Assembly (NCBI GenBank): GCA_951406725.2
Contig: OX597831.1
Location: forward strand, 61,008,001-61,072,000
DNA length: 64,000 bases
Direction of reading: 5' to 3'
DNA from: Octopus vulgaris
Lineage: Eukaryota
Of this stretch, positions 6,301 through 62,592 are shown in pieces (position 1 is the first letter of the stretch; every line of letters starts with the position of its first letter). The position numbers were made by a program, and so were the translations under genes. A model generated the notes under the pieces. That model worked only from the letters and a program-made list of their open reading frames with translations. It did no database searches and was not told the DNA's origin.

Positions 6301-8520
6301 GCTTAAGGAATATGTTTTTGAAACAATTGGTCACGAGGAGTCAGAAAATCCTATGCTTACTGAAAATAAAAATGATGATGATCGAATCTAACATAATTAG
6401 ATTAAAAAGAATTCCAGTTGGTATCCAGATAAAGCTCGGGATGGACGGTCACAAGCACTACTGGCATTTCTTGAATCTTCTCGGACAGGTATTAGAGAAA
6501 TCCTTAAAACAAGTGGAAGGAAGTCCTGGAATGAGCTCACAATACCCAAAGTTACGCACTCAAATGTCTAGCTAATAATGATTATATTGTTATTAAAACT
6601 GGCGGATAAGGTAGGCGCTATCGTAATTATGGATGAAAGTGCGAATAATTTGGCTTGTGAAGACGTTTTAAATAACAAAACTTCATATGAAGAATTACTT
6701 GTCGATCCAAATCCAAAATTCAGAGAGGGACTTGATAAAATAATTCTGGAAACAGTTTCATTAATAAGGCATAATCCAGGATTTTACGGTGAGAAAGAAT
6801 AACACCTGTGTTTTGTTCTCCCTAAAATACACAAAAAGTTCGAAAGATTTCCTCCAATGCGCCAAATGTGCAGCGGATATGAATGCCATTCGGCCAAGTT
6901 TTCGGAATGACTGGAAGGCTTTCTATTCCTTACTGCAAAAAGATCAATTTCCTATATTCGGGACACTTTTGATTTTGTGTCAAAAATCAACAACTTTTTA
7001 AGCAGAACTATGTTTCGGTAACCATGGATGTTTCTTCCTTATATCCCAATATTGACAATGATGAAGGGATAGAACTATGCATGCATGCCTTCGAAAAGCT
7101 GTCAAACAAAAGTAATTCCATCAATTTTTTCTCTGTGAAATTTCGAGGTTTGTGTTACGAAGTAACACAGTGAAGTTTGAACAAAGATTTTACCACCATG
7201 GTTGCGTCATGGGTATTCCATGGCAGTTACTTCTGCTAATGTCTTCATGACGAAATTCGAGTCACAGTTATCAAATACAATCAAATCCCTCCATGGTCAT
7301 GAACAAATACTTTGGTTACGGTTCATTGATGACGTATGTTTTGTGTGGGAAAGATCAGAGGATTGTTTTACTAAATTCTTGAAGTCCAACATAAAATTTA
7401 GGTTTAGATTTTCAAAAACTAGCATTGTATTTTTGGACACAGAATTTAGGTTTTCTAGAGGCAGAATTGTAACAGAGTTATATTACAAGCCTACATCATC
7501 GCACATTTGTCTCCGATTATCCACATCATATTGTTCCCTCAAATCCGAAATCCCAATTTTTTTTAGGCATTTTCGCAGGCATTTCAAAAGTGTTGAATGA
7601 AAATTGGCCAAAAAATATCCTCGTTTCAAACATATATTTCCTCAGCCGACTATTGTAGCTTTTAGACGGAATAAGGATATAAGAGAATTATTGACCTCTA
7701 TTTCTGACTCCAAGAAAACGAACATCGGAGTATCTGCACGCTGTACTTTGAAAAACAGCCGCAAGAGAGGTAAGCCCTGTTCATTGTGCAACAACATGAG
7801 TCAAGTCAATTCTATCAAGAATCATAATAGAAATGTTATGATTTATACGGAAGATTGGACATGTAGAGATTCCCATTTTGTATAAATGTCAGAATACACG
7901 AAACACTTGATTCGTGTTGGTTATACAACAGAACCATTGAAAAAAAATTTAATGGGCACAGATTCGACATCGGGCCCAATAACAGTAGTTGGACAGAACC
8001 TGCTGTACATGTTGCTTCAAACGGCTGCAATTTTGAAAAAGATTTGAAAGTGCATATTCTCAGAAAAATTTCTGAGTCTACTTCATTTTCACTCCTCAAA
8101 GTGCATGAAGAGAAATATGTTTGCGGAGAAATATTAAAATTACGCACCGGAGAAATAAATAAAATGACGTGAGAATATCATTAAATTTATACAAAACTGT
8201 TTCGTTATATATTCTTTTTCCTTATCTTCTTTCTTTCCTCTCTTTTATCTGACTTTTTTCTGTCTCTTTCTTTTCGTCTGTTATAAAATTGAAACTTAAA
8301 GACTGAAACTTAAAGATGCCATTCTATCAACGTGAGGACGCTGGTTGCTCTCGTTCATACTTTAAATTCAAACTTCTTTAATTTTGAATTTTTATCACCT
8401 GCTATTTTGAACTCAACAAAGATAGACTTATTGTCGAAATATCGTTCAACCAATAAAATATCTATTACAATCGAAATGCGCTCTTCGTCTTGACTGTTTT
8501 CTTCTGTGAAGATCTTCGTC
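6301..8520 (+). mobile_element. Penelope-like retroelement (RT + Cys-rich linker + GIY-YIG remnant + pLTR-like tail), frameshifted
   Basis: KLADKVGAIVIMD; KIHK; SYIRDT.DFV; TMDVSSLYPNIDNDEG; WLRFIDDVCFVW; VFLD..TELYYKPT; C..K....PCSLC linker; FNGHRFDI; T-rich 3' region with a hammerhead-like remnant and AATAAA. Confidence 0.85.
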
Positions 8521-10613: not shown

Positions 10614-11731
<1,118 letters not shown>

Positions 11732-11733
<2 letters not shown>

Positions 11734-12197
11734 GCCCTGATGCAGTACCAGACAGTGGCTGTCATGGCTTCTCATCTTAACTGATTGGAAATGTTATCAT
11801 GTACATTGTTTTGTCTTGGTATAAAAGATGGGTTATAGTACGTATTCAGATGAATACCACAGATCTGCTTATCAGTTGTTTGATCTTAACCAGTTGAGCA
11901 TGTCCCTTAGTGGCTGATACTTGGAAACATGGGTGTTTCCATCAACATCCTTAAACAACCCTTCATCAGGGATACTTTCAGTGGGATGAGCTACTCGACT
12001 TGAAGAAAATTATAACTGGGTCCCACCTGCAAGTTCATGCGCTGTTTATCTTGATATGAGATCACCATGTCGCACACATTTGGTCGTGATGCATGTGCCT
12101 AGTGTACTCTTATCAGAAGGGTAGTCATGATGGGTATACTGGGCTTCGTATATTTTACCCCAGTGTCACTTTGATTGCATGCACTGCTCTCTCACCC
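11732..12197 (+). mobile_element. family F element with an internal deletion
   Basis: Starts atgccctgatgcagtacc and ends tgctctctcaccc followed by (AAT)n. Confidence 0.85.
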
Positions 12198-20429: not shown

Positions 20430-21165
20430 ATTTTCTATTCTAAGCACAAGGCCAGAAATTTCGGGGCAGGGGGATAGTCGATTAGATCTAACCCAGTACG
20501 CCACTGGTACTTAATTTATAGACCCCGAAAAGATGAAAGATAAAGTCGACCTCGGCGGAATTTGAACTCAGAACGTAAAGACAGTCGAAATACTGCTAAG
20601 CATTACGCTCGTCGTGCAGACGCTTCTTATTTCTTTATTGCCCACAAGGGACTAAACATAGAGGGGACAAGCAAGGACAGACAAACGGAATAAGTCGATT
20701 ATATCGACACCGTGCGTAACTAGTACTTATTTAATCAACCCCGAAAGGATGAAAGGCAAAGTCGACCTCGGTGGAATTTGAACTCAGAACGTAGCGGCAG
20801 ACAAAACACCTATTTCTTTACTATCCACAAGGGGCTACACACAGAGAGGACAAACAAGGACAGAGAAATGGATTAAGTCATTTGAACTCACAACGTAACA
20901 GCAGACGAAATACCGCTAATCATTACGCCCGGCGTGCTAACGTTTCTTACTTCTTTATTACCCACAAGGAGCTACACTCAGAGAGAACAAACGGATTAAG
21001 TCGATTAAATCGACCCCAGTGTGTAACTGGTACTTAATTTATCGACCCCGAAAGGATGAAAGGCAAAGTCGACCTCGGCGGAATTTGAACTCAGAATGTA
21101 ATGGCAGACGAAATACGGCTACGCATTTCGCCCGGCGTGCTAACGTTTCTGCCAGCTCGCCACCT
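20430..21165 (-). mobile_element. tandem multimer (about 4 units) of SINE family A
   Basis: Repeated gaaaggatgaaaggcaaagtcgacctcgg..gaatttgaactcag blocks; only the last unit has a complete tRNA head. Confidence 0.85.
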
Positions 21166-22404: not shown

Positions 22405-22821
22405 TTTATTTCTTTATTGCCCAAAGGGGGCTAAACATAGAGGGTACAAATAACGACAGTCAAAGGGATTAAGTCGATTAAATCGACCCCAGTGTGTAAT
22501 TGGTGCTTAATTTATCGACCCCGAAAGGATGAAAGGCAAAGTCGACCTCGGCGGAATTTCAACTCTGAACGTAACGGCAAACGAAATACCTATTTCTTTA
22601 CTACCCACAAGGGGCTAAACACGGAGGAGACAAACAAAGACAAACAAACGGATTAAGTCGATTATATCGACCCCAGTGTGTAACTGGTACTTAATTTATC
22701 AACCCCGAAAGGATGAAAGACAAGTCGACCTCGGCGGAATTTGAACTCAGAACGTAACGGCAGACGAAATACCGCTAAGTATTTAGCCCGGCATGCTAAC
22801 GATTCTGCTAGCTCATTGCCC
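22405..22821 (-). mobile_element. dimer of SINE family A
   Basis: Two body/tail units joined at gaaatac|ctatttcttta. Confidence 0.85.
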
Positions 22822-27733: not shown

Positions 27734-28193
27734 CACGTTATTCATATATATATGTGTATGTACACACATATGCACGTGTATATACAAATAAAGAGAAGAA
27801 GAGAGAGATGGGATCTCAAAAACAACTCTCATAAGAATCCCACGAACGACTCATAAAATCATGATGTAGCACAACAAGGAAAGAATTAACGACGAAAGGA
27901 AGCTATAGCCGATCATTGTGAAGGTTTCCTGCCCGGCACGCCCGAAACTGCCCACATCAGGGATAGTGATCTGGCTTCGAGCGGTCTTTATGTCACAACA
28001 GATCACATACAATGTGTGCGCAAAAACAGACATAAGTGGACGAAGGAAGAGTACTTTGAAATTTTGGATGGAAAAAGACATTTGTCCAATGTCACATATT
28101 AAGCAAAGTATTATCTGTCTGAAATCCTTGTGTTGTGACTTGACAGATGACTAAAGTCTCCGGTGCATTTTTTACCTACACTGTGTTACGAAG

Positions 28194-28250
<57 letters not shown>

Positions 28251-28258
28251 TAATAATA

Positions 28259-28790
28259 AGGCCAATAAACCAGATATTGTTGTGAGAACCATCAAGGACA
28301 ATAAACCAGATATTGTTGTGAAAGACCAAAACAATAAAGTTTGCTTATTGATCGACATGAACATCCCCTGTGATCATAATATCTCAGCGAAAGAGTTTTA
28401 CAAGCTCAGAAAATATAAAGACCTACTCATTGAAATTGATAAAATGTGGCATCTCAAGGCGGTTACAATACCAGTGATCGTAGGAGCACTAGGAATGATC
28501 AAAAAGGGAACCGAAAATTATATGAGAATGATCCCTGGCTTACCATCCCTGCAAGAAGTGCAAAAGATTGTCTTAACTGGTACATCACACGTATTGAGAA
28601 GAGCATTGTCGATGTGAGAACTGTTGCTGCTCATGTATTTTAATTTAACTTTTAAACAAAATTTTAAAAATGAACGAACAGTTGAGTTTGATTTAATGGC
28701 CTACCAATGTATACTATGAGTTTCTTTGCCCTAGGAGTCGGGAAGACACTCGGCAAGAAATGGAAGCAAATTTGAAAGAAAAAGAAAGTA
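28259..28790 (+). mobile_element. 5'-truncated RLE LINE (3'-UTR family 2), endonuclease region
   Basis: NKPDIVV..CLLIDM..KYKDL..MWHLK..PVIVGALG; (AAT)n on both sides. Confidence 0.9.
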
Positions 28791-31519: not shown

Positions 31520-31523
<4 letters not shown>

Positions 31524-32002
31524 CATAAGTTGAAGACGGGAAGGATGACTTCCCTTCACAAATACTGATAGGGCACAGAAAGTGTGTATATAGCCAGCTG
31601 GATGAGGTGTCTTCCTGGGGCTACAAGCTACAGTAGCATCCACCCTTAGGGGTTAGCCATATTCAAATGACAAATATACGTATATATCTATATATGTATA
31701 TGTAAAAACATACAGGGACAAGAACGCAAAATATTTAGAAGACGATACAAAAAACAATGGCGGGACATTCGAAGCCTTCAATCTTCAGTCAAGAACGGGA
31801 TTATCCTCGCAATTTCGGCTGATTAATCTTGAGATTGCTCCGGTCTGGCCAGCCCCAAAGAAAAGTCTAAGCCAAGCGCATTAGATTCCTTGGAAGAAAG
31901 CCTCGAATGTATACAAAACAAGGACGGAAAAACGGACGATGTTACACGAATAAGAATACAAAAATACGTAAAAACAATAATGATAACACGAATAAGAATA
32001 GA
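31520..32002 (-). mobile_element. non-coding pLTR/retrozyme-like repeat in (TA)n carrying a permuted hammerhead motif
   Basis: T-rich minus strand with the same overall layout as 33640-34065; boundaries approximate. Confidence 0.55.
31773..31845 (-). ncRNA. putative pseudoknotted (non-circularly permuted) hammerhead ribozyme
   Basis: GCAAU-C-UCAAGA uuaauc AGCC-GAA-AUUGC (14 nt) UCUUGA-CUGAAGA-uugaa-GGCU. Confidence 0.6.
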
Positions 32003-32034
32003 AATATATCTATATATATCTATCTATATATATA

Positions 32035-32111: not shown

Positions 32112-32355
32112 ATATTGCCCACCGGATGCTCCAAATCACATAGGCAAGTTTGAAGATTGCTTTACAAGAATTAAAGAAATCCTCATGAATCCTCATGAAT
32201 CTGGAATACCACGTGACCATATTTCTTATGGCTGATTTCAACTTCCCCAACGTCAAATGGCCCGAAGGTCTCATTCTCTCAGGAATGAATCTTTGCAAGC
32301 AAGTACAGGTGGAGTCCAAGTTATATCTTGATATCGCTAGTGATAACAATACTCA
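32112..32355 (+). mobile_element. AP-endonuclease fragment of a CR1/L2-type LINE
   Basis: Y(C)[29 protein letters not shown], once a 10-bp duplication (aatcctcatg) is removed. Confidence 0.7.
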
Positions 32356-32369
32356 AAATATATAACAGA

Positions 32370-33203
32370 CTGGAATTGTAGGCCCGTCTCTCGCAATTTC
32401 GATCAATTGGATCTTGTCCTCCCTCTTATATAGAAGTGTACGGCTGTAGCGAAATTCATTTTTGAACTTTCTTCTATCGAAGGCATTTGAACAAAAATGC
32501 TTCCGTAAAGACGGTGAAAATATTGTCACGTTCCCCAAACAGGGACGCAATCAAATTTTTGAACAATAACCAAAGCCCCTTCTCTAAAAGGGGGAGGGTT
32601 ACGGTTTACAATTATTTAACAAATGCAACACAACAACGTTTCCCTGACGAGGAATTAACAAATGTGATTACAATAGTCAAACAGTAATAATAATAACAAC
32701 AAACCTTTTTAATTTATCCCCATTTATGTGAAACCACTTATTCAAGTTCAAGTCATTGATGCAATTTTATACGAATTGCTAATACACACACACTCACACA
32801 TAATAAGGGTGAAAAATTGAATATTGATTTGAGTAATATGAATTGAAAACCAGTGGTGTAGCATATAAGACCATAGCGGATCTTCTTCTAGCAAGAGGAT
32901 GACCACTGTTAATGGTTCATCCCTGTTATATAATACTTTCACTTTAATAGTTTCAGTATTAAAGTGAATGTCTGCATTACAGTAGAGAGATGTTTTTGTT
33001 TCACTTTTAACACGTAATACTGAAATAGTGGAGAAGATATGATATTGCTGTGGGGTCGCCATAGGGAAAACGTTTTGCTGATGACACTCCCCTGACCTTA
33101 AGTAAGGCATGTATAAAATTTGAATGAAAACGGTTGTGTAGTTCTCAAGTTTTAGGGAAACACACAGACAGGCACACATTCTCAGTTTTATATATATAGA
33201 GAT
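32370..33203 (+). mobile_element. non-autonomous Helitron/Helentron-like (Lep1/DINE-type) element; 5' boundary uncertain
   Basis: End motif catgtataaaatttgaatgaaaacggttgtgtagtt...cacagacag...ttttatatatatagagat resembles this element class. Confidence 0.5.
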
Positions 33204-33208
33204 ATATG

Positions 33209-33251
<43 letters not shown>

Positions 33252-33266
33252 TTGAGTGTCGATTTT

Positions 33267-33298
<32 letters not shown>

Positions 33299-33301
<3 letters not shown>

Positions 33302-34179
33302 GTATGTATGCATATATTTTATTTATTACACTATTGTATGATTGAGCGCCCTCGCGTCGATTCGATTCGTTCCGTTTCGTTTCCTCCTAGTAAATTTTTA
33401 TATATAATTATGGCATGAAACTATATAACTCTTTGCTTGACCTACCCTTCCTTCCCTATCTCCCTCTCTCTCACTCCTCCTCATCTCTCTCACAGCCGTT
33501 TGTCTTCGTATATCTCTCTCTCACTCCTCCTCATCTCTCTCACAACCGGGCGACTACTTCCTTTCGCCTGCGGCCTCCTAACAGTGATCAACGTTCCTCT
33601 TGCGCTCATAAAAATCTATCCTCATTGTTTGTTTTCTTGTTTGTTTTTATTTCTTCTACTGTATTTTTTGGTAATTATATTTTTATTTTGTATTTTATTT
33701 TGTAATTTTATTTGTATCGTTTTTACGTCCTGTATTTGTCACATTTTTTTCTTTCCTTGTTTTTACCCCTCTGCGAAGTAATTTTATTTAATTCTTTCGC
33801 AGGAAGGGCTAGTTCGACGAGTCGTGTTCTGTCTTCACCTTCGAAACACGCTGGAGTTGAACTAGGGACAGCTGATGAAGGGGAATTTTCCTCGTGTAGT
33901 TTGTCTTGTACTCTGTTTTTTCGTTGTTTAAAAAGGTCCGTTTCCATGTTTGTTTTTACGTTTTCGTTTCTCGTTGAGTTCTACGTCTAATTCTGGTGTC
34001 GTGTACTCACGTATATATATTTACATATGCATGTATATATACATGTAGATGTAGGTACGTACATATATGTATGTATGTATGCATATATTTTATTTATTAC
34101 ACTATTGTATGACTGAGCGCCCTCGCGTCGATTCGATTCGTTTTGTTTCGTTTCGTTTCGTTTCGTTTCCTCCTAGTAA

Positions 34180-34183
<4 letters not shown>
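33299..34183 (+). mobile_element. non-coding element with ~100-bp direct terminal redundancy (unit ~771 nt) inserted in (TA)n; pLTR/retrozyme-like
   Basis: 33299-33397 is repeated at 34070-34183; internal hairpins and a hammerhead-core motif. Confidence 0.7.
33809..33883 (+). ncRNA. putative pseudoknotted (non-circularly permuted) hammerhead ribozyme
   Basis: CGUGU-U-CUGUCUU cac CUUC-GAA-ACACG (14 nt) GGGACAG-CUGAUGA-A-GGGG. Confidence 0.65.
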
Positions 34184-34251
<68 letters not shown>

Positions 34252-45314: not shown

Positions 45315-45401
45315 CTTAGTACAATTGTTTCATACTATAAACATTTTATTTAAAGCTGTAAATATTACAGCAAATATAATGTTAAGTATTCTTCAGCTAA
45401 A
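45315..45401 (-). ncRNA. type I hammerhead ribozyme, intact core, palindromic stem III
   Basis: UUUAG-CUGAAGA-AUACU(long hairpin)AGUAU-GAA-ACAAUUGU-A/CUAAG. Confidence 0.8.
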
Positions 45402-46299: not shown

Positions 46300-47327
46300 A
46301 ATTTATATCTAAAAATAGTGGTTGGCATACATATATAACTTTTTGTATATGTTGAAATTCCATAATTGAATAAAATAAATCAGTCCAATAGAAAATGAAT
46401 GATAAAGCAATTGCCAAGATATGAATACTTCTCCATAAGAGTCATGTCGGACCTCTAATGACACAGGTTTTAATATGAATGGATGTCCAGGAGTCAAGTA
46501 ATTACGTGACAATCAGTAATAGGAATTGGTGTTTAGTTCAGGTTTGTATTTTTGGATGAAATATGTTTCTTTGCTGAATCGAACTTGCGTAGAAGACCAG
46601 TCAGCAAATTTAGATAGAGGGAAAATAGTGAATTTAGGTTCTTTGTTTCGTACATACGTCGATATGTTCACTGAGATAAATTTGGCGGTATTGTGATGAG
46701 AGTATCTGTTGACGATGCACCGTACAACGTTGACGGATAGAATTCCCCGTGCTACCGATATAGTCTTTCTGGCAGCCCGAGCATCTGATTACGTAGATCA
46801 GATTTTGTGATGCACAAGTGAAATTTGATTTAATGGTAAAGTGTTGCCTGTGTTTAAAATAGTATTCTGACCCTTCCAAAAGGTTGGGGCATGTACCACA
46901 TTTGGGGCGATTACATTTTTTCTTTTATTTTAGGGCTTGTTGTTAAGGGGAATAATTTTGCGTTTGTTAGCAGTTTCTTTAGTGACTTAGGTTGTTTGTT
47001 GCTTTTGCCAATTCTAATGTCACGTAAAATTCTATTTATTTTGGGGTCCTTGTGTAGTATTGGAAGGTTTTGTATAAATGTGCTGAATGCTTCTTTGTTT
47101 CTGGGGTTGTATGTGGAAATGTATGGTAGTGTTTTAAGGAGAGGTTTGTTAATGTCTTTAGTTTTACTTAATGTCTCGGTGTCGATAGATTTAGCACGTT
47201 TTATTCCTTCATTAATGAGTTGGATTGGGTAGTGTCTATCCAGGAGGACGTTTTTCAGTTCTCGTAGTTTTAAATCTCTATTTTTTCCCTCTGAGACAAT
47301 AGTGCAGCCAAATCTCTCTTTAGACAC
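46300..47327 (-). mobile_element. 5'-truncated Penelope-like element: RT thumb, Cys linker and GIY-YIG endonuclease
   Basis: LLDRHYP..LI; LPYISTYNP; KQPKSLKKLL; CNRPKCGTC; FTCASQNLIYVIRCSGCQKDYIGSTG..RQR..H; KETYFIQKYKPELN. Confidence 0.9.
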
Positions 47328-47814
47328 ACCCTTTTATCAAAAGAATGACACAGGTTTACACTATTTCAGGTAGAAAAATGTATGCGATGGGTTTGCTACA
47401 CCAGAGGTAACTTTGGGCTAAGCAAAACACAAACATACTACACATCAAAAGATTATCTACTAAATAATACTAATAAAGTTGATAGTACATCTTCGAAGTT
47501 TTATTCCCTGGTAAAAATATTTCTCATTATGCTCTATCTAAACATTTTCTCACTATGCTCCATCTAAGGTTGCCTCCCTTACCTAAAAAACCCAAAATTG
47601 TGCGACCCAACCGCTTGTAATATAAAAGAGTTGTGCAAGACATACTTCATATCGTAGCCGAAGTATTACTCAATCTTTTGATACCACATACTACAAGTTG
47701 GCAACTCAGTTTTCGATTCCGTAAGGAACATACCCCACCCTCACGCACACATACCCATACACATACACAAACACACACAAATAACTGCTCTTTTATTATA
47801 TAAGATATACATAT

Positions 47815-48090
47815 ATATCAGCTCTCTCCTCTTCCGATCACTTCAGCCATATAGACACACCCGTGCTTTACTCGAGCTATTCTTTCCCTTCTCTCCGGAC
47901 ATTTCCCCTTTTCCCTTTTCTCACGGAGAGCTATACTCGAAATGTCACACCCACTCTTTTATCCACCTGAAACTGAGCGTCAACCGAGTATATTGCATGT
48001 ATATTTCCTTTGACTTTGTTGTTTTTTTTTGTTTTTTTTTTTCCTTATTCACCAATATTTGTGGGGCGCGACGTGTGTGTGTGATGTGCT
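47815..48090 (+). mobile_element. decayed pLTR-like repeat with a degenerate minimal hammerhead (47920-47946)
   Basis: CTCACGG-A-GAG-ctata-CTC-GAAA-TGTC in a C/T-rich context. Confidence 0.4.
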
Positions 48091-49304
48091 TCTTTCATTT
48101 TATAGTGATCTGCCAGGGAATATGTTACAAGAAACTTGCGGAAGATTCCTCGAAGTGAAACAGAACCAGAAGCTCCATGGTTATGAAACGAACGTCTTAA
48201 CGATACGGCAATGCGAGATTATATTCGTATGTGAGTGTCTGTGCGTGCGTGAGGATGTGGGAGTGTGTGTGTGTGTGTGTGTTTGTTCAATAGGTTAAAA
48301 TGAATACGAAGTTTAAACACTCTATGCCAAAAATTTCCTTTGTAAAATAGAAAGGCCGTCTTCAAAGAAATCAACATTGATGCAGCCTACTATAATATAT
48401 ATTCTTCAGTAAAGAAAAAGAAAAATAAGAGTGAATATGAGTTGGGCTTTTTGTTTTGTTTGTTTTTTGTTTTGTTTTGTTTTTCTTGTCTTTTTGCATT
48501 TTAAATAACTACTATATCTCAACACCAACATAATTAGGAATCAATACAGTAGTAAATATAGTATCCAATATGATTGATTCAGTGAAACTTCCCACTCTAG
48601 GTTTACTGTTCATTAAAACAATATTTTCAATAGCACTGTTCACAGCTTTGAGTGTTGATAATAAAGAGAGCCACAAAAATGTGTTTTATTTACTATAACT
48701 ATGAATAGGAAACTGTCCTTTATTATGTCCAACTAAAAATATCTTTACTGTACATAAAGACGGCATCAAAAATTGCCAAGTTATAGATTTTATGACCGCT
48801 ATTGTTGTTTAGCCCAAGATTAGCACTGATCAGAAATATGATCAAAATCATGCGTGGTATAATCTTACCCATTTTCACAAAAAGTCTACCGTGAACATTA
48901 TCCCAAAGGTCTCCATTTTTTTTTTTTTTGTAAAACTTATTGGTGATTGGTTTAGAGAAGTTTTGGCTGTGATTCCGAGCAGTTCAAACAACAATGTTGA
49001 AACTGCGCTTTTGGTTCATTTCCAACAGCTATTTAAAGTGTTGTGACAGCAAGGCACCACGGCTGCATGGGATAATATATATACATAAACACACACACAC
49101 ACACACATCTATATAGATAGAGAGAGAGAGACAGAGAGACGGACAGGCAGGCAGGCAGATAGACAGAAAGAGTTATAGACGGGATAACCAAAGAAAGTAT
49201 TCCATCGAGTTACAGAAAAAAAATCATTTAATATGCACGATTTACAAAAGAGCATCTAATAGTTCCATGCTTTAGAGATACAATAAATTAGCAGATTTGT
49301 ATAA

Positions 49305-57937: not shown

Positions 57938-59743
<1,806 letters not shown>

Positions 59744-61269: not shown

Positions 61270-62592
61270 TACCCAATGTCCTGGTCCTGGGGCGAGTGAA
61301 GGATAAGAGATATAACAGTATGATTGAAAGCTGGGGGAAGGGAAGTAGAAAAATATATTCATATAATACAACACAGACATTTAAGTGGATAGGGTTTTTC
61401 TAAAGATGTGAGCAGTACTTGTCAGTACAATCATTTGGATTTCTCAGAGACATGGTTCTCCTGGGATCTTAGCTAGATGTTTCTGACATCCCTATTTTAT
61501 CATACATAGAGCACCTAGAATAATAGGAACAGCTCTCGTTTTAAGATGCCACATCTTTTGTATTTCAATTTCCTGGTCCTTATATTTACTTAGATGTACT
61601 TACATAGCGAGTAACTTGATCTGAGGTCGTGTGCTGGAACGAAAACAATTGCAGCGTGGAAGGTGTTTATAAACCCTTTAAGAAACACACAAAACCGTTA
61701 GATTCACTTCAACATTTAAATTTAATTTGTCAAAATATTTTCGTCGCTTTGAGACCGCAACCTGTTCGTGATGCAGCAGGTCGCGGTCTCAAAGCGAAGA
61801 AAATATTTTGACAAATTAAATTTAAATGTTGAAGTGAATCTAACGGTTTTGTGTGTTTCTTAAAGGGTTTATAAACACCTTCCACGCTGCAATTGTTATA
61901 TTTACTTAGTTTGTCAAATTCCTTGACAAATATATTTTTATCGGTGGAAACAATTACATCTATTAGTCTACATGTATTTTCTTCCCAGTCTTTAGTAATT
62001 ATGTCTGGTCGATTAGCCTGGATCTCTCTGTCAGTGTTGCCAGGAAAAACCCAGAGTATAGTGACATTTTTACCTTCAATGACTGACTGAGGATGATGTT
62101 CATACCAGTCAGCAGGAGTGCTGATTTTGTAGTGCTTACGTATTTTCTTATGTCAATACTATCCTAACGTATCTTGGAGATTTTTTATTCGTTTGGTGTC
62201 AGCACAGGACACCCCGAGACGAAATTATCTATTGTTTCGTCAAATGTGTCGCAGAAGCTGCATTTAGAGTCAAAACCGATTTGAAGAACGTTAATCTGGT
62301 AGATTCTTGTGAGTAAATTTTGATCTTGTGCCGCCAATATGAAACCTTCAGGCTCTGCTTTCAGTCCTGAACTTCTCAGCCACTGATGGGTAGTTGCTTG
62401 ATCTACAACAGCATTTCAACTTTGAAGTATATACTTTCCATGCAGAGGATTCTGCCTCCACCGCTTCTCAATTTGTTTCTGCCCTTTCTTTTTTGCAGTC
62501 TGCTTGATCCATTTTGCTTCTTTTGTGGCAGTGGTTTCAGATTCTTCAAATATTTCAGGATTAATACCAAGTTTCCTTGCGAATTTGTTGTT
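61270..62592 (-). mobile_element. decayed RLE LINE 3' part, interrupted by the palindromic element
   Basis: WRQNPLHGKY, HQWLRSSGLKAE.EGFILAAQDQ, CSFC..ETID, ANRPDII, KEFDKLSKY | KYKDQEIEIQKMWHLK; 3' boundary approximate. Confidence 0.85.
61594..61895. mobile_element. palindromic (foldback) insertion with a 14-bp TSD; probably an inverted Penelope-type pLTR pair
   Basis: 121-bp arms at 61644-61764 and 61777-61897 with 2 mismatches; ttatatttacttag at 61580-61593 and 61896-61909. Confidence 0.8.

Follow-up and report, generated by a model that had tools for sequence, protein, structure and literature searches.

A probable non-autonomous Naiad-type retroelement with a predicted split-core hammerhead ribozyme, inserted in (TA)n in the Octopus vulgaris genome

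Naiads are Penelope-like elements (PLEs) with (TA)n as insertion target; their copies form partial tandems and in many cases lack a discernible TSD (PMC8557442). In cephalopods, where they are described as long-inactive remnants, all five of the Naiads listed favour (TA)n (PMC8557442). This targeting is common to Naiad and Neptune (PMC8557442), and thus insertion in (TA)n is by itself not diagnostic of Naiad. Naiads can dominate invertebrate genomes; Naiad_Plae makes up 7.8% of that of its host (PMC8557442). They were reported to be without canonical hammerheads and received just “core” and “half-core” flags, the latter given to eight families with the other half located 35-50 nt off on either side, and the absence of canonical hammerheads was used to question the role of PLE ribozymes (PMC8557442). 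Non-autonomous PLEs are known among the Chlamys elements, e.g. MRC1, an ORF-less passenger of PLEs with an N-terminal endonuclease that produces pLTRs and was initially taken for an LTR element; MRC1 and Chlamys are algal, target mostly (C)n or (CA)n and the passenger has a 3' end similar to that of its autonomous partner (PMC8557442). For another PLE, Poseidon PAc, the endonuclease nicks AT-rich DNA and reverse transcription begins at an internal site downstream of the ribozyme, the cleavage of which is protein-assisted and dispensable for insertion in vitro (PMC11167929).

Two further systems bear on the locus described here. Non-LTR retrozymes are defined as having at least two tandem units, each with a type I hammerhead motif (PMC7229834; 10.64898/2026.07.22.740005). 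Hammerheads have furthermore been arranged by Eckert et al. into six block orders, under the assumption that block C is uninterrupted by more than 1-2 nt; type SGC was shown to cleave, while type CSG is known from two sequences, both metagenomic (PMC10085705). These types derive from metatranscriptomes and metagenomes, and a known organism was given only for one weak bacterial GCS candidate (PMC10085705).

The window analysed here, i.e. the whole 64-kb stretch of DNA, is AT-rich and microsatellite-rich animal sequence with decayed retrotransposons. The first-pass annotation had described a unit of about 771 nt with a terminal redundancy of about 100 nt, outer ends in (TA)n, no credible ORF and consecutive hairpins, and each of these features was recovered by our analysis. 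A 99-nt repeat, R, located at 33299-33397 (+), recurs at 34070-34183 (+) (blastn within the unit, E 5e-37) in exact blocks of 43, 29 and 25 nt with a sole substitution at 33342, hence with little divergence between the two copies. The offset is 771 as far as 33371 and 786 past a pentamer run that is expanded by 15 nt in the right copy; the period of the unit is 771 to 786 nt, the insertion amounts to 1.13 units and the two R copies enclose 672 ORF-less bases. Both outer ends continue into unstranded (TA)n, on the left at approximately 33270-33298 (read from the sequence, within a TRF array at 33189-33317), the likely insertion target, and on the right at 34183-34247 (TRF), with no discernible TSD. 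Just upstream of the unit, the left array is interrupted by a 22-nt non-repeat island at 33248-33269. The left R copy begins within the element's own TA-like tract, and the right copy is likely the 3' end, at which reverse transcription would have started. Each junction coincides with a TA-like tract belonging to the unit: a short TA tract at 33399-33406 (+) after R matches the right flank at offset 786, and a tract of alternating purines and pyrimidines at 34004-34088 (+) leads up to and into R, and the insertion has its 5' junction in the equivalent tract. These positions suggest priming and joining by microhomology with the (TA)n target. The interior holds a 31-nt CT-rich direct repeat at 33464-33544 (+), offset 50. 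Folding of R, as of the 3' segment of a second element described below, was no better than that of shuffles (z -0.6 to -1.3), and we therefore claim no hairpin for the start of reverse transcription. TG..CA ends and a terminal inverted repeat, which the first-pass annotation had named as evidence against its own reading, were both absent from the unit (best local score for an inverted repeat 6). No PBS or PPT was seen in the unit by eye, including a polypurine tract before the right R; the features of a TRIM or an LTR retrozyme (TG..CA, PBS, PPT, TSD, ribozyme inside the LTR) are thus not those of the unit.

The longest ATG ORF of the unit, of 96 aa, is of low complexity, none of four unit ORFs tested matched Pfam and word-index protein searches with its spurious ORFs were empty (3/3). 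The only profile-search match (P0001), to a six-repeat protein of a Sphaerochaetaceae bacterium, has a score summed over repeats and was attributed to chance. Between the R copies there is no trace of an RT or endonuclease, and an ORF with N-terminal GIY-YIG, CxC linker and RT is absent in or beside the unit. Rfam gave no match on the unit at gathering score and, up to E 10, 48 weak matches, mostly microRNA models on TA-like tracts, none of them to a hammerhead family or another ribozyme. A SINE was considered and found unsupported, with no tRNA-like head detected. The 64-kb window holds no further copy of the unit or of the second element, and the GTDB genomes gave no match to the motif of either, as expected for an animal repeat; the copy search covered the window and these genomes, and the family to which the unit would belong is putative. 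The unit resembles Naiads in its (TA)n target, partial-tandem ends and lack of a discernible TSD, and differs from them in having no GIY-YIG/RT ORF, a length of 0.8 kb compared with about 3.4-4.4 kb and no match to the consensus sequences (PMC8557442). Its pLTR-like partial-tandem ends, (TA)n insertion and absence of coding capacity are all of PLE type, and in being ORF-less it is like the Chlamys passengers (PMC8557442).

Screening the window for all six hammerhead block orders, we found a single site in the order S-G-C, located in the unit (U16.1 at 33827, G12 at 33843, C3 at 33872), with an intact core (CUGAUGA/GAAA/UH) adjoined by stems I-III. The strand order is Q5', hairpin A, II5', P5', III5', UH, I5', II3', GAAA, III3', P3', I3', CUGAnGA and Q3'. 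On the plus strand, the 5' arm of helix Q (33766-33770) pairs with 33879-33883 (5/5 Watson-Crick, in the MFE fold) and is followed by hairpin A (33771-33802), directly 5' of G10.1. The 5' arm of stem II (33803-33807, G10.1 being 33803) lies upstream of the cleavage block and pairs with 33838-33842 (5/5 Watson-Crick). A long hairpin (33809-33865) consists of helix P (33809-33818/33856-33865) and stem III (33823-33827/33846-33850), and its loop carries the cleavage site, the 5' arm of stem I (33829-33833), the 3' arm of stem II (33838-33842) and GAAA (33843-33846). The cleavage triplet is predicted to be GUU (33826-33829); if the analogy to hammerheads holds, the cut would separate 33828 from 33829. 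Downstream, at 33867-33883 (+), follow the 3' arm of stem I (33867-33871), the CUGAUGA core (33872-33878) and the 3' arm of helix Q (33879-33883). Both hairpins are present in the MFE fold (z -3.1, 0/200 shuffles), with pair probabilities mostly >0.9. The MFE fold of 33760-33890 comprises Q, A, P and III, the nested part of the model, and leaves the 5' arm of stem II, the 3' arm of stem I and the core unpaired, while in the folded 771-nt circle the core is hidden by alternative pairing. The ribozyme lies outside R, giving one hammerhead-like motif in this copy of 1.13 units. In a separate part of the window, a one-off match in type I order at 45321-45396 was set aside; it has a long AT-rich loop, and shuffles yield such matches at 0.03 per window.

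The unit thus carries a predicted hammerhead ribozyme with its core split between A9 and G10.1. The link between these two positions appears to be replaced by helix Q and hairpin A, most simply as a four-way junction, and stems I and II would form as two pseudoknots. The stems of the motif cross, in contrast to hammerhead types I-III of Rfam, which are circular permutations without crossing stems. Like types SGC and CSG, the motif has a non-circular order, two pseudoknots and a helix (P) that connects stems I and II at their distal ends, and like type SGC it runs from the S block over the G block to CUGAnGA (PMC10085705). Unlike in both types, the stem II arm is located upstream, severed from CUGAnGA, helix Q and hairpin A being placed at the point of interruption, and the resulting order is none of the six of Eckert et al. 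(PMC10085705). The block order S, G, C of type SGC is therefore present, while block C is interrupted, the stem II arm not standing directly after CUGAnGA. An assignment to plain type SGC was dropped once the upstream stem II arm proved to be the conserved one. In the unit, the upstream duplex has -4.6 kcal/mol against 0.0 for a downstream stem II, for which 4 bp are possible, two of them G-U pairs.

The same architecture was found in a second non-coding element at 31522-32003 (-), unrelated in sequence to the unit and likewise located between microsatellites. Here the split-core hammerhead occupies 31765-31910 (-), with helix Q of 15 bp, hairpin A of 8 bp, stems II and III of 5 bp each and stem I of 6 bp, and with C3 at 31788, G12 at 31816, U16.1 at 31834 and G10.1 at 31854. 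The catalytic-core positions are intact in both elements. Reading the stems I-III outward from the core, 12/15 pairs have both partners changed from one element to the other (stem I 5/5, stem II 3/5, stem III 4/5) and 15/15 pair in both; the three unchanged pairs include G10.1-C11.1 and A15.1-U16.1, present in each. No downstream stem II exists in the second element at offsets 0-3, and its helix P is weak, with no 6-of-7 match and about 5/6 pairs by eye. A descriptor of the split core gave two sites in the window, namely these two; in block-wise dinucleotide shuffles the core alone was obtained in 3/1000 and the core with hairpin A and helix Q in 0/1000, values that are not strict p-values as the descriptor was drawn up after the motifs had been seen. 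The similar layout that the first-pass annotation ascribed to 31520-32002 was borne out for ribozyme architecture, T-rich strand and microsatellite flanks, all common to the two elements, and failed for the terminal redundancy, as the second element has no self-match and merely a 15-nt internal repeat. It appears 5'-truncated and terminates in a GC-richer segment of 150 nt by (CA)n/(TA)n, a short stretch of which resembles, by eye only, the 5' end of Naiad_Ovul.

Comparison with Naiads was based on pairings read by eye, not computed, in the published consensus 3' ends (File S5, PMC8557442), and covered the whole end of 12 among the 54 Naiad families; the names 2_Movir, 4_Dst and Obim were assigned by place in the file. 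Five of the 12 whole ends (2_Movir, Plae, EuTe, Obim, Ovul) show the split-core architecture by eye, Esco shows it in part (1/12), 4_Dst is degenerate and SGC-like (1/12), and no motif was seen by eye in the remaining five (Dcar, Ppla, Omin, Adux, 1_Skow). Motif matches added Bfor (stem I of 2 bp), Amil and Anas, as well as Aacu with a mismatch in stems I and II. Thus Bfor, Amil, Anas, 2_Movir, Plae, EuTe, Obim and Ovul share, by eye, the split core of the unit in their 3' UTRs (PMC8557442). Their hosts belong to five phyla (ctenophore, cnidarian, acanthocephalan, arthropod and mollusc). In these eight consensus sequences the catalytic-core positions are intact by eye and the stems exchanged, every stem differing in sequence with G10.1-C11.1 retained; a downstream stem II is absent by eye, and helix Q has merely about 3 bp in Obim and Ovul. 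Three of three motifs of the unit had no match in the published Naiad consensus supplement, and the unit is therefore not a piece of a published Naiad consensus; its link to Naiads is one of architecture, read by eye, and of target, not of sequence. Other arrangements were seen by eye in the same file: seven entries in parts 13-16, mostly nematode, have a full type-CSG hammerhead with helix P, and entries in parts 17-19, mostly ostracod Naiads by file order, have an SGC-like layout with helix P around a CUGACGA block and an atypical cleavage block.

We consider it probable that the unit is a non-autonomous Naiad-type PLE retroelement that inserted in (TA)n as 1.13 units and carries the predicted split-core hammerhead. 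The first-pass annotation had proposed a non-autonomous element with a permuted hammerhead; the PLE passenger with partial-tandem ends agrees with our data, the ribozyme being of split-core form instead of a simple permutation. Since R encloses 672 ORF-less bases, the template was probably tandem or circular RNA of the short unit. By analogy with Poseidon PAc, internal initiation could be carried out by an autonomous PLE, most probably a Naiad, whose RT/GIY-YIG protein would act in trans and bind tandem, less likely circular, RNA. Its endonuclease would nick (TA)n, and reverse transcription would begin where R ends, a point 355 nt 3' of the predicted cut site. One full unit would be copied through an uncut or religated ribozyme site, and copying would halt in the TA-like tract of the preceding unit, after another 99 nt. 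A linear monomer cut by the ribozyme could not yield this copy. The ribozyme would trim tandem precursors and, as stem III and helix P form a near-continuous rod in several families, would likely act by the loop of one copy docking on the base of another. In EuTe and Plae, a mere 1- or 3-nt bulge separates stem III from helix P, and the base of the rod could hardly reach its own loop; we therefore favour two-copy docking as in tandem precursors, by geometric reasoning and not by a model. Dimer cleavage is reportedly named in the title of a PLE paper. Axolotl retrozyme hammerheads cleave better as dimers (PMC7229834). With its single ribozyme, the transcript of this locus alone could not be cut at both ends, so that no unit-length RNA would be released by it, contrary to what had been suggested from the sequence. 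Against a Naiad partner, both PLE remnants of the window have the endonuclease after the RT, which is not the Naiad order, and neither adjoins the unit; the slight divergence of the two R copies also sits poorly with cephalopod Naiads being long-inactive remnants (PMC8557442).

Among the other explanations, the one that survives best, although we regard it as unlikely, is that the structure is real yet no longer catalytic, a fold that derives from a hammerhead and was retained as a signal for protein binding or packaging. Mutation of the Poseidon ribozyme does not prevent insertion in vitro, and no read ends were seen at its cut site (PMC11167929), several Naiad ends have a decayed motif or none, and 8/9 predicted Xenopus retrozyme dimers failed to cut (bioRxiv 10.64898/2026.07.22.740005); against it, the two window elements and, as read by eye, the eight Naiad consensus sequences have kept every catalytic-core position, with their stems exchanged.

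We find it improbable that the unit is a retrozyme in which a plain type-SGC hammerhead cuts multimers to unit-length RNAs that circularise, with the insertion copied from a circle. The order S-G-C is that of the validated type SGC (PMC10085705), the 4-bp downstream stem II is feasible in the unit, a copy longer than one unit, made across an intact site, is consistent with a religated circle, and retrozyme circles were demonstrated in animals (PMC7229834). The unit is moreover like non-LTR retrozymes in being a non-coding, hammerhead-bearing, PLE-derived passenger of low GC (PMC7229834; 10.64898/2026.07.22.740005), and its length lies inside the range of 51-972 bp of Li et al. (10.64898/2026.07.22.740005). 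However, the downstream stem, weak in the unit, is missing from the second element and, as read by eye, from the split-core Naiads, and the motif misses the published SGC descriptor with a linker of 16 nt, the limit being 15 nt, and A for U after the core (PMC10085705). A tandem template accounts for the ends equally well as a circle. Unlike non-LTR retrozymes, the unit has one ribozyme in a 1.13-mer, of a motif other than type I (PMC7229834); with fewer than two tandem units each bearing a ribozyme at this locus, the retrozyme-like reading of the first-pass annotation falls outside the published definition.

It is quite improbable, too, that 5' truncation or internal deletion of an autonomous PLE, of Naiad or Neptune-like kind, left its 3' end (pLTR) as the unit, with no self-standing non-autonomous family. 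Copies of PLEs are mostly 5'-truncated and partially tandem (PMC8557442; bioRxiv 10.64898/2026.07.22.740005), the ribozyme of the unit is placed as in Naiads, in a T-rich 3' region, the second element resembles such a truncated end, and the window holds two decayed PLEs with a C-terminal endonuclease. An autonomous partial tandem would nevertheless enclose the ORF, whereas the 672 nt between the R copies show no trace of an RT or endonuclease, and an end repeat after 771 ORF-less bases is not expected of a solo pLTR, the other reading proposed in the first-pass annotation. It is very improbable that the motif arose by chance in a TRIM/LTR element, a MITE, a Helitron or a local duplication: the 99-nt direct terminal repeat, a TGG start after the left R and CTAG near the end of R are TRIM-like and no further copy occurs in the window, but TG..CA ends, a polypurine tract before the right R and a terminal inverted repeat are lacking, both R copies extend past CTAG, the ribozyme lies outside R and a motif obtained in 0/1000 shuffles occurs twice in the window.

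As a probable non-autonomous Naiad-type PLE, the unit would function in the manner of either of two known kinds, non-LTR retrozymes or non-autonomous PLEs, and it is the ribozyme order that is new with respect to the six of Eckert et al. In the literature searched, which took in PMC13725137 and PMC10162972 and excludes most subscription papers, we found no report of the split-core form or of permuted hammerheads in Naiads. We tentatively suggest, as a possibility that falls short of even likelihood, that the motif represents a seventh hammerhead topology, with a four-way junction at A9/G10.1, that would fire only on two-copy loop-to-base docking and thus sense tandem RNA; that, together with type CSG (nematode Naiads) among the non-circularly permuted hammerheads, it might account for the missing Naiad ribozymes across animal phyla; and that it may define a class of ORF-less Naiad passengers, with two unrelated families in the window. 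If the motif cleaves, Naiad ribozymes were missed owing to their strand order, this would be a natural hammerhead with an interrupted CUGAnGA block, contrary to the rule, and non-circular permutations, so far environmental sequence, would be placed in animal chromosomes. Moreover, the split-core descriptor provides a handle on ORF-less PLE passengers overlooked by searches for type I.

The remainder of the window contains several other decayed elements. A PLE ORF in pieces at 6580-8172 (+) comprises an RT (weak Pfam RVT_1 match) followed by a Cys motif and a GIY-YIG-like region, read by eye, the endonuclease thus standing after the RT in a Neptune-like order. The 3' fragment of another PLE at 46513-47333 (-) encodes an RT thumb, a Cys motif and GIY-YIG (Pfam E 1.5e-4). 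Another non-coding island rich in CT/T, at 47640-48300 (+), has GAAAC words and is laid out similarly in composition; scanning with relaxed settings gave no split-core motif at this island or beside the two PLE remnants. A short fragment at 32189-32365 (+) has a LINE endonuclease-like motif by eye and no Pfam match at E 0.01. Four related C-terminal fragments of non-LTR retrotransposon ORFs are located at 10988-11761 (-), 28144-28617 (+), 58500-59524 (+) and 61730-62152 (-), three of them adjoining (AAT)n arrays, and we take them to be likely members of a site-preferring family with a restriction-like endonuclease. Furthermore, a head-to-tail dimer of a 184-nt repeat, which presumably resembles an octopus SINE, was found at 22407-22773, with related pieces near 21000 and 27500.
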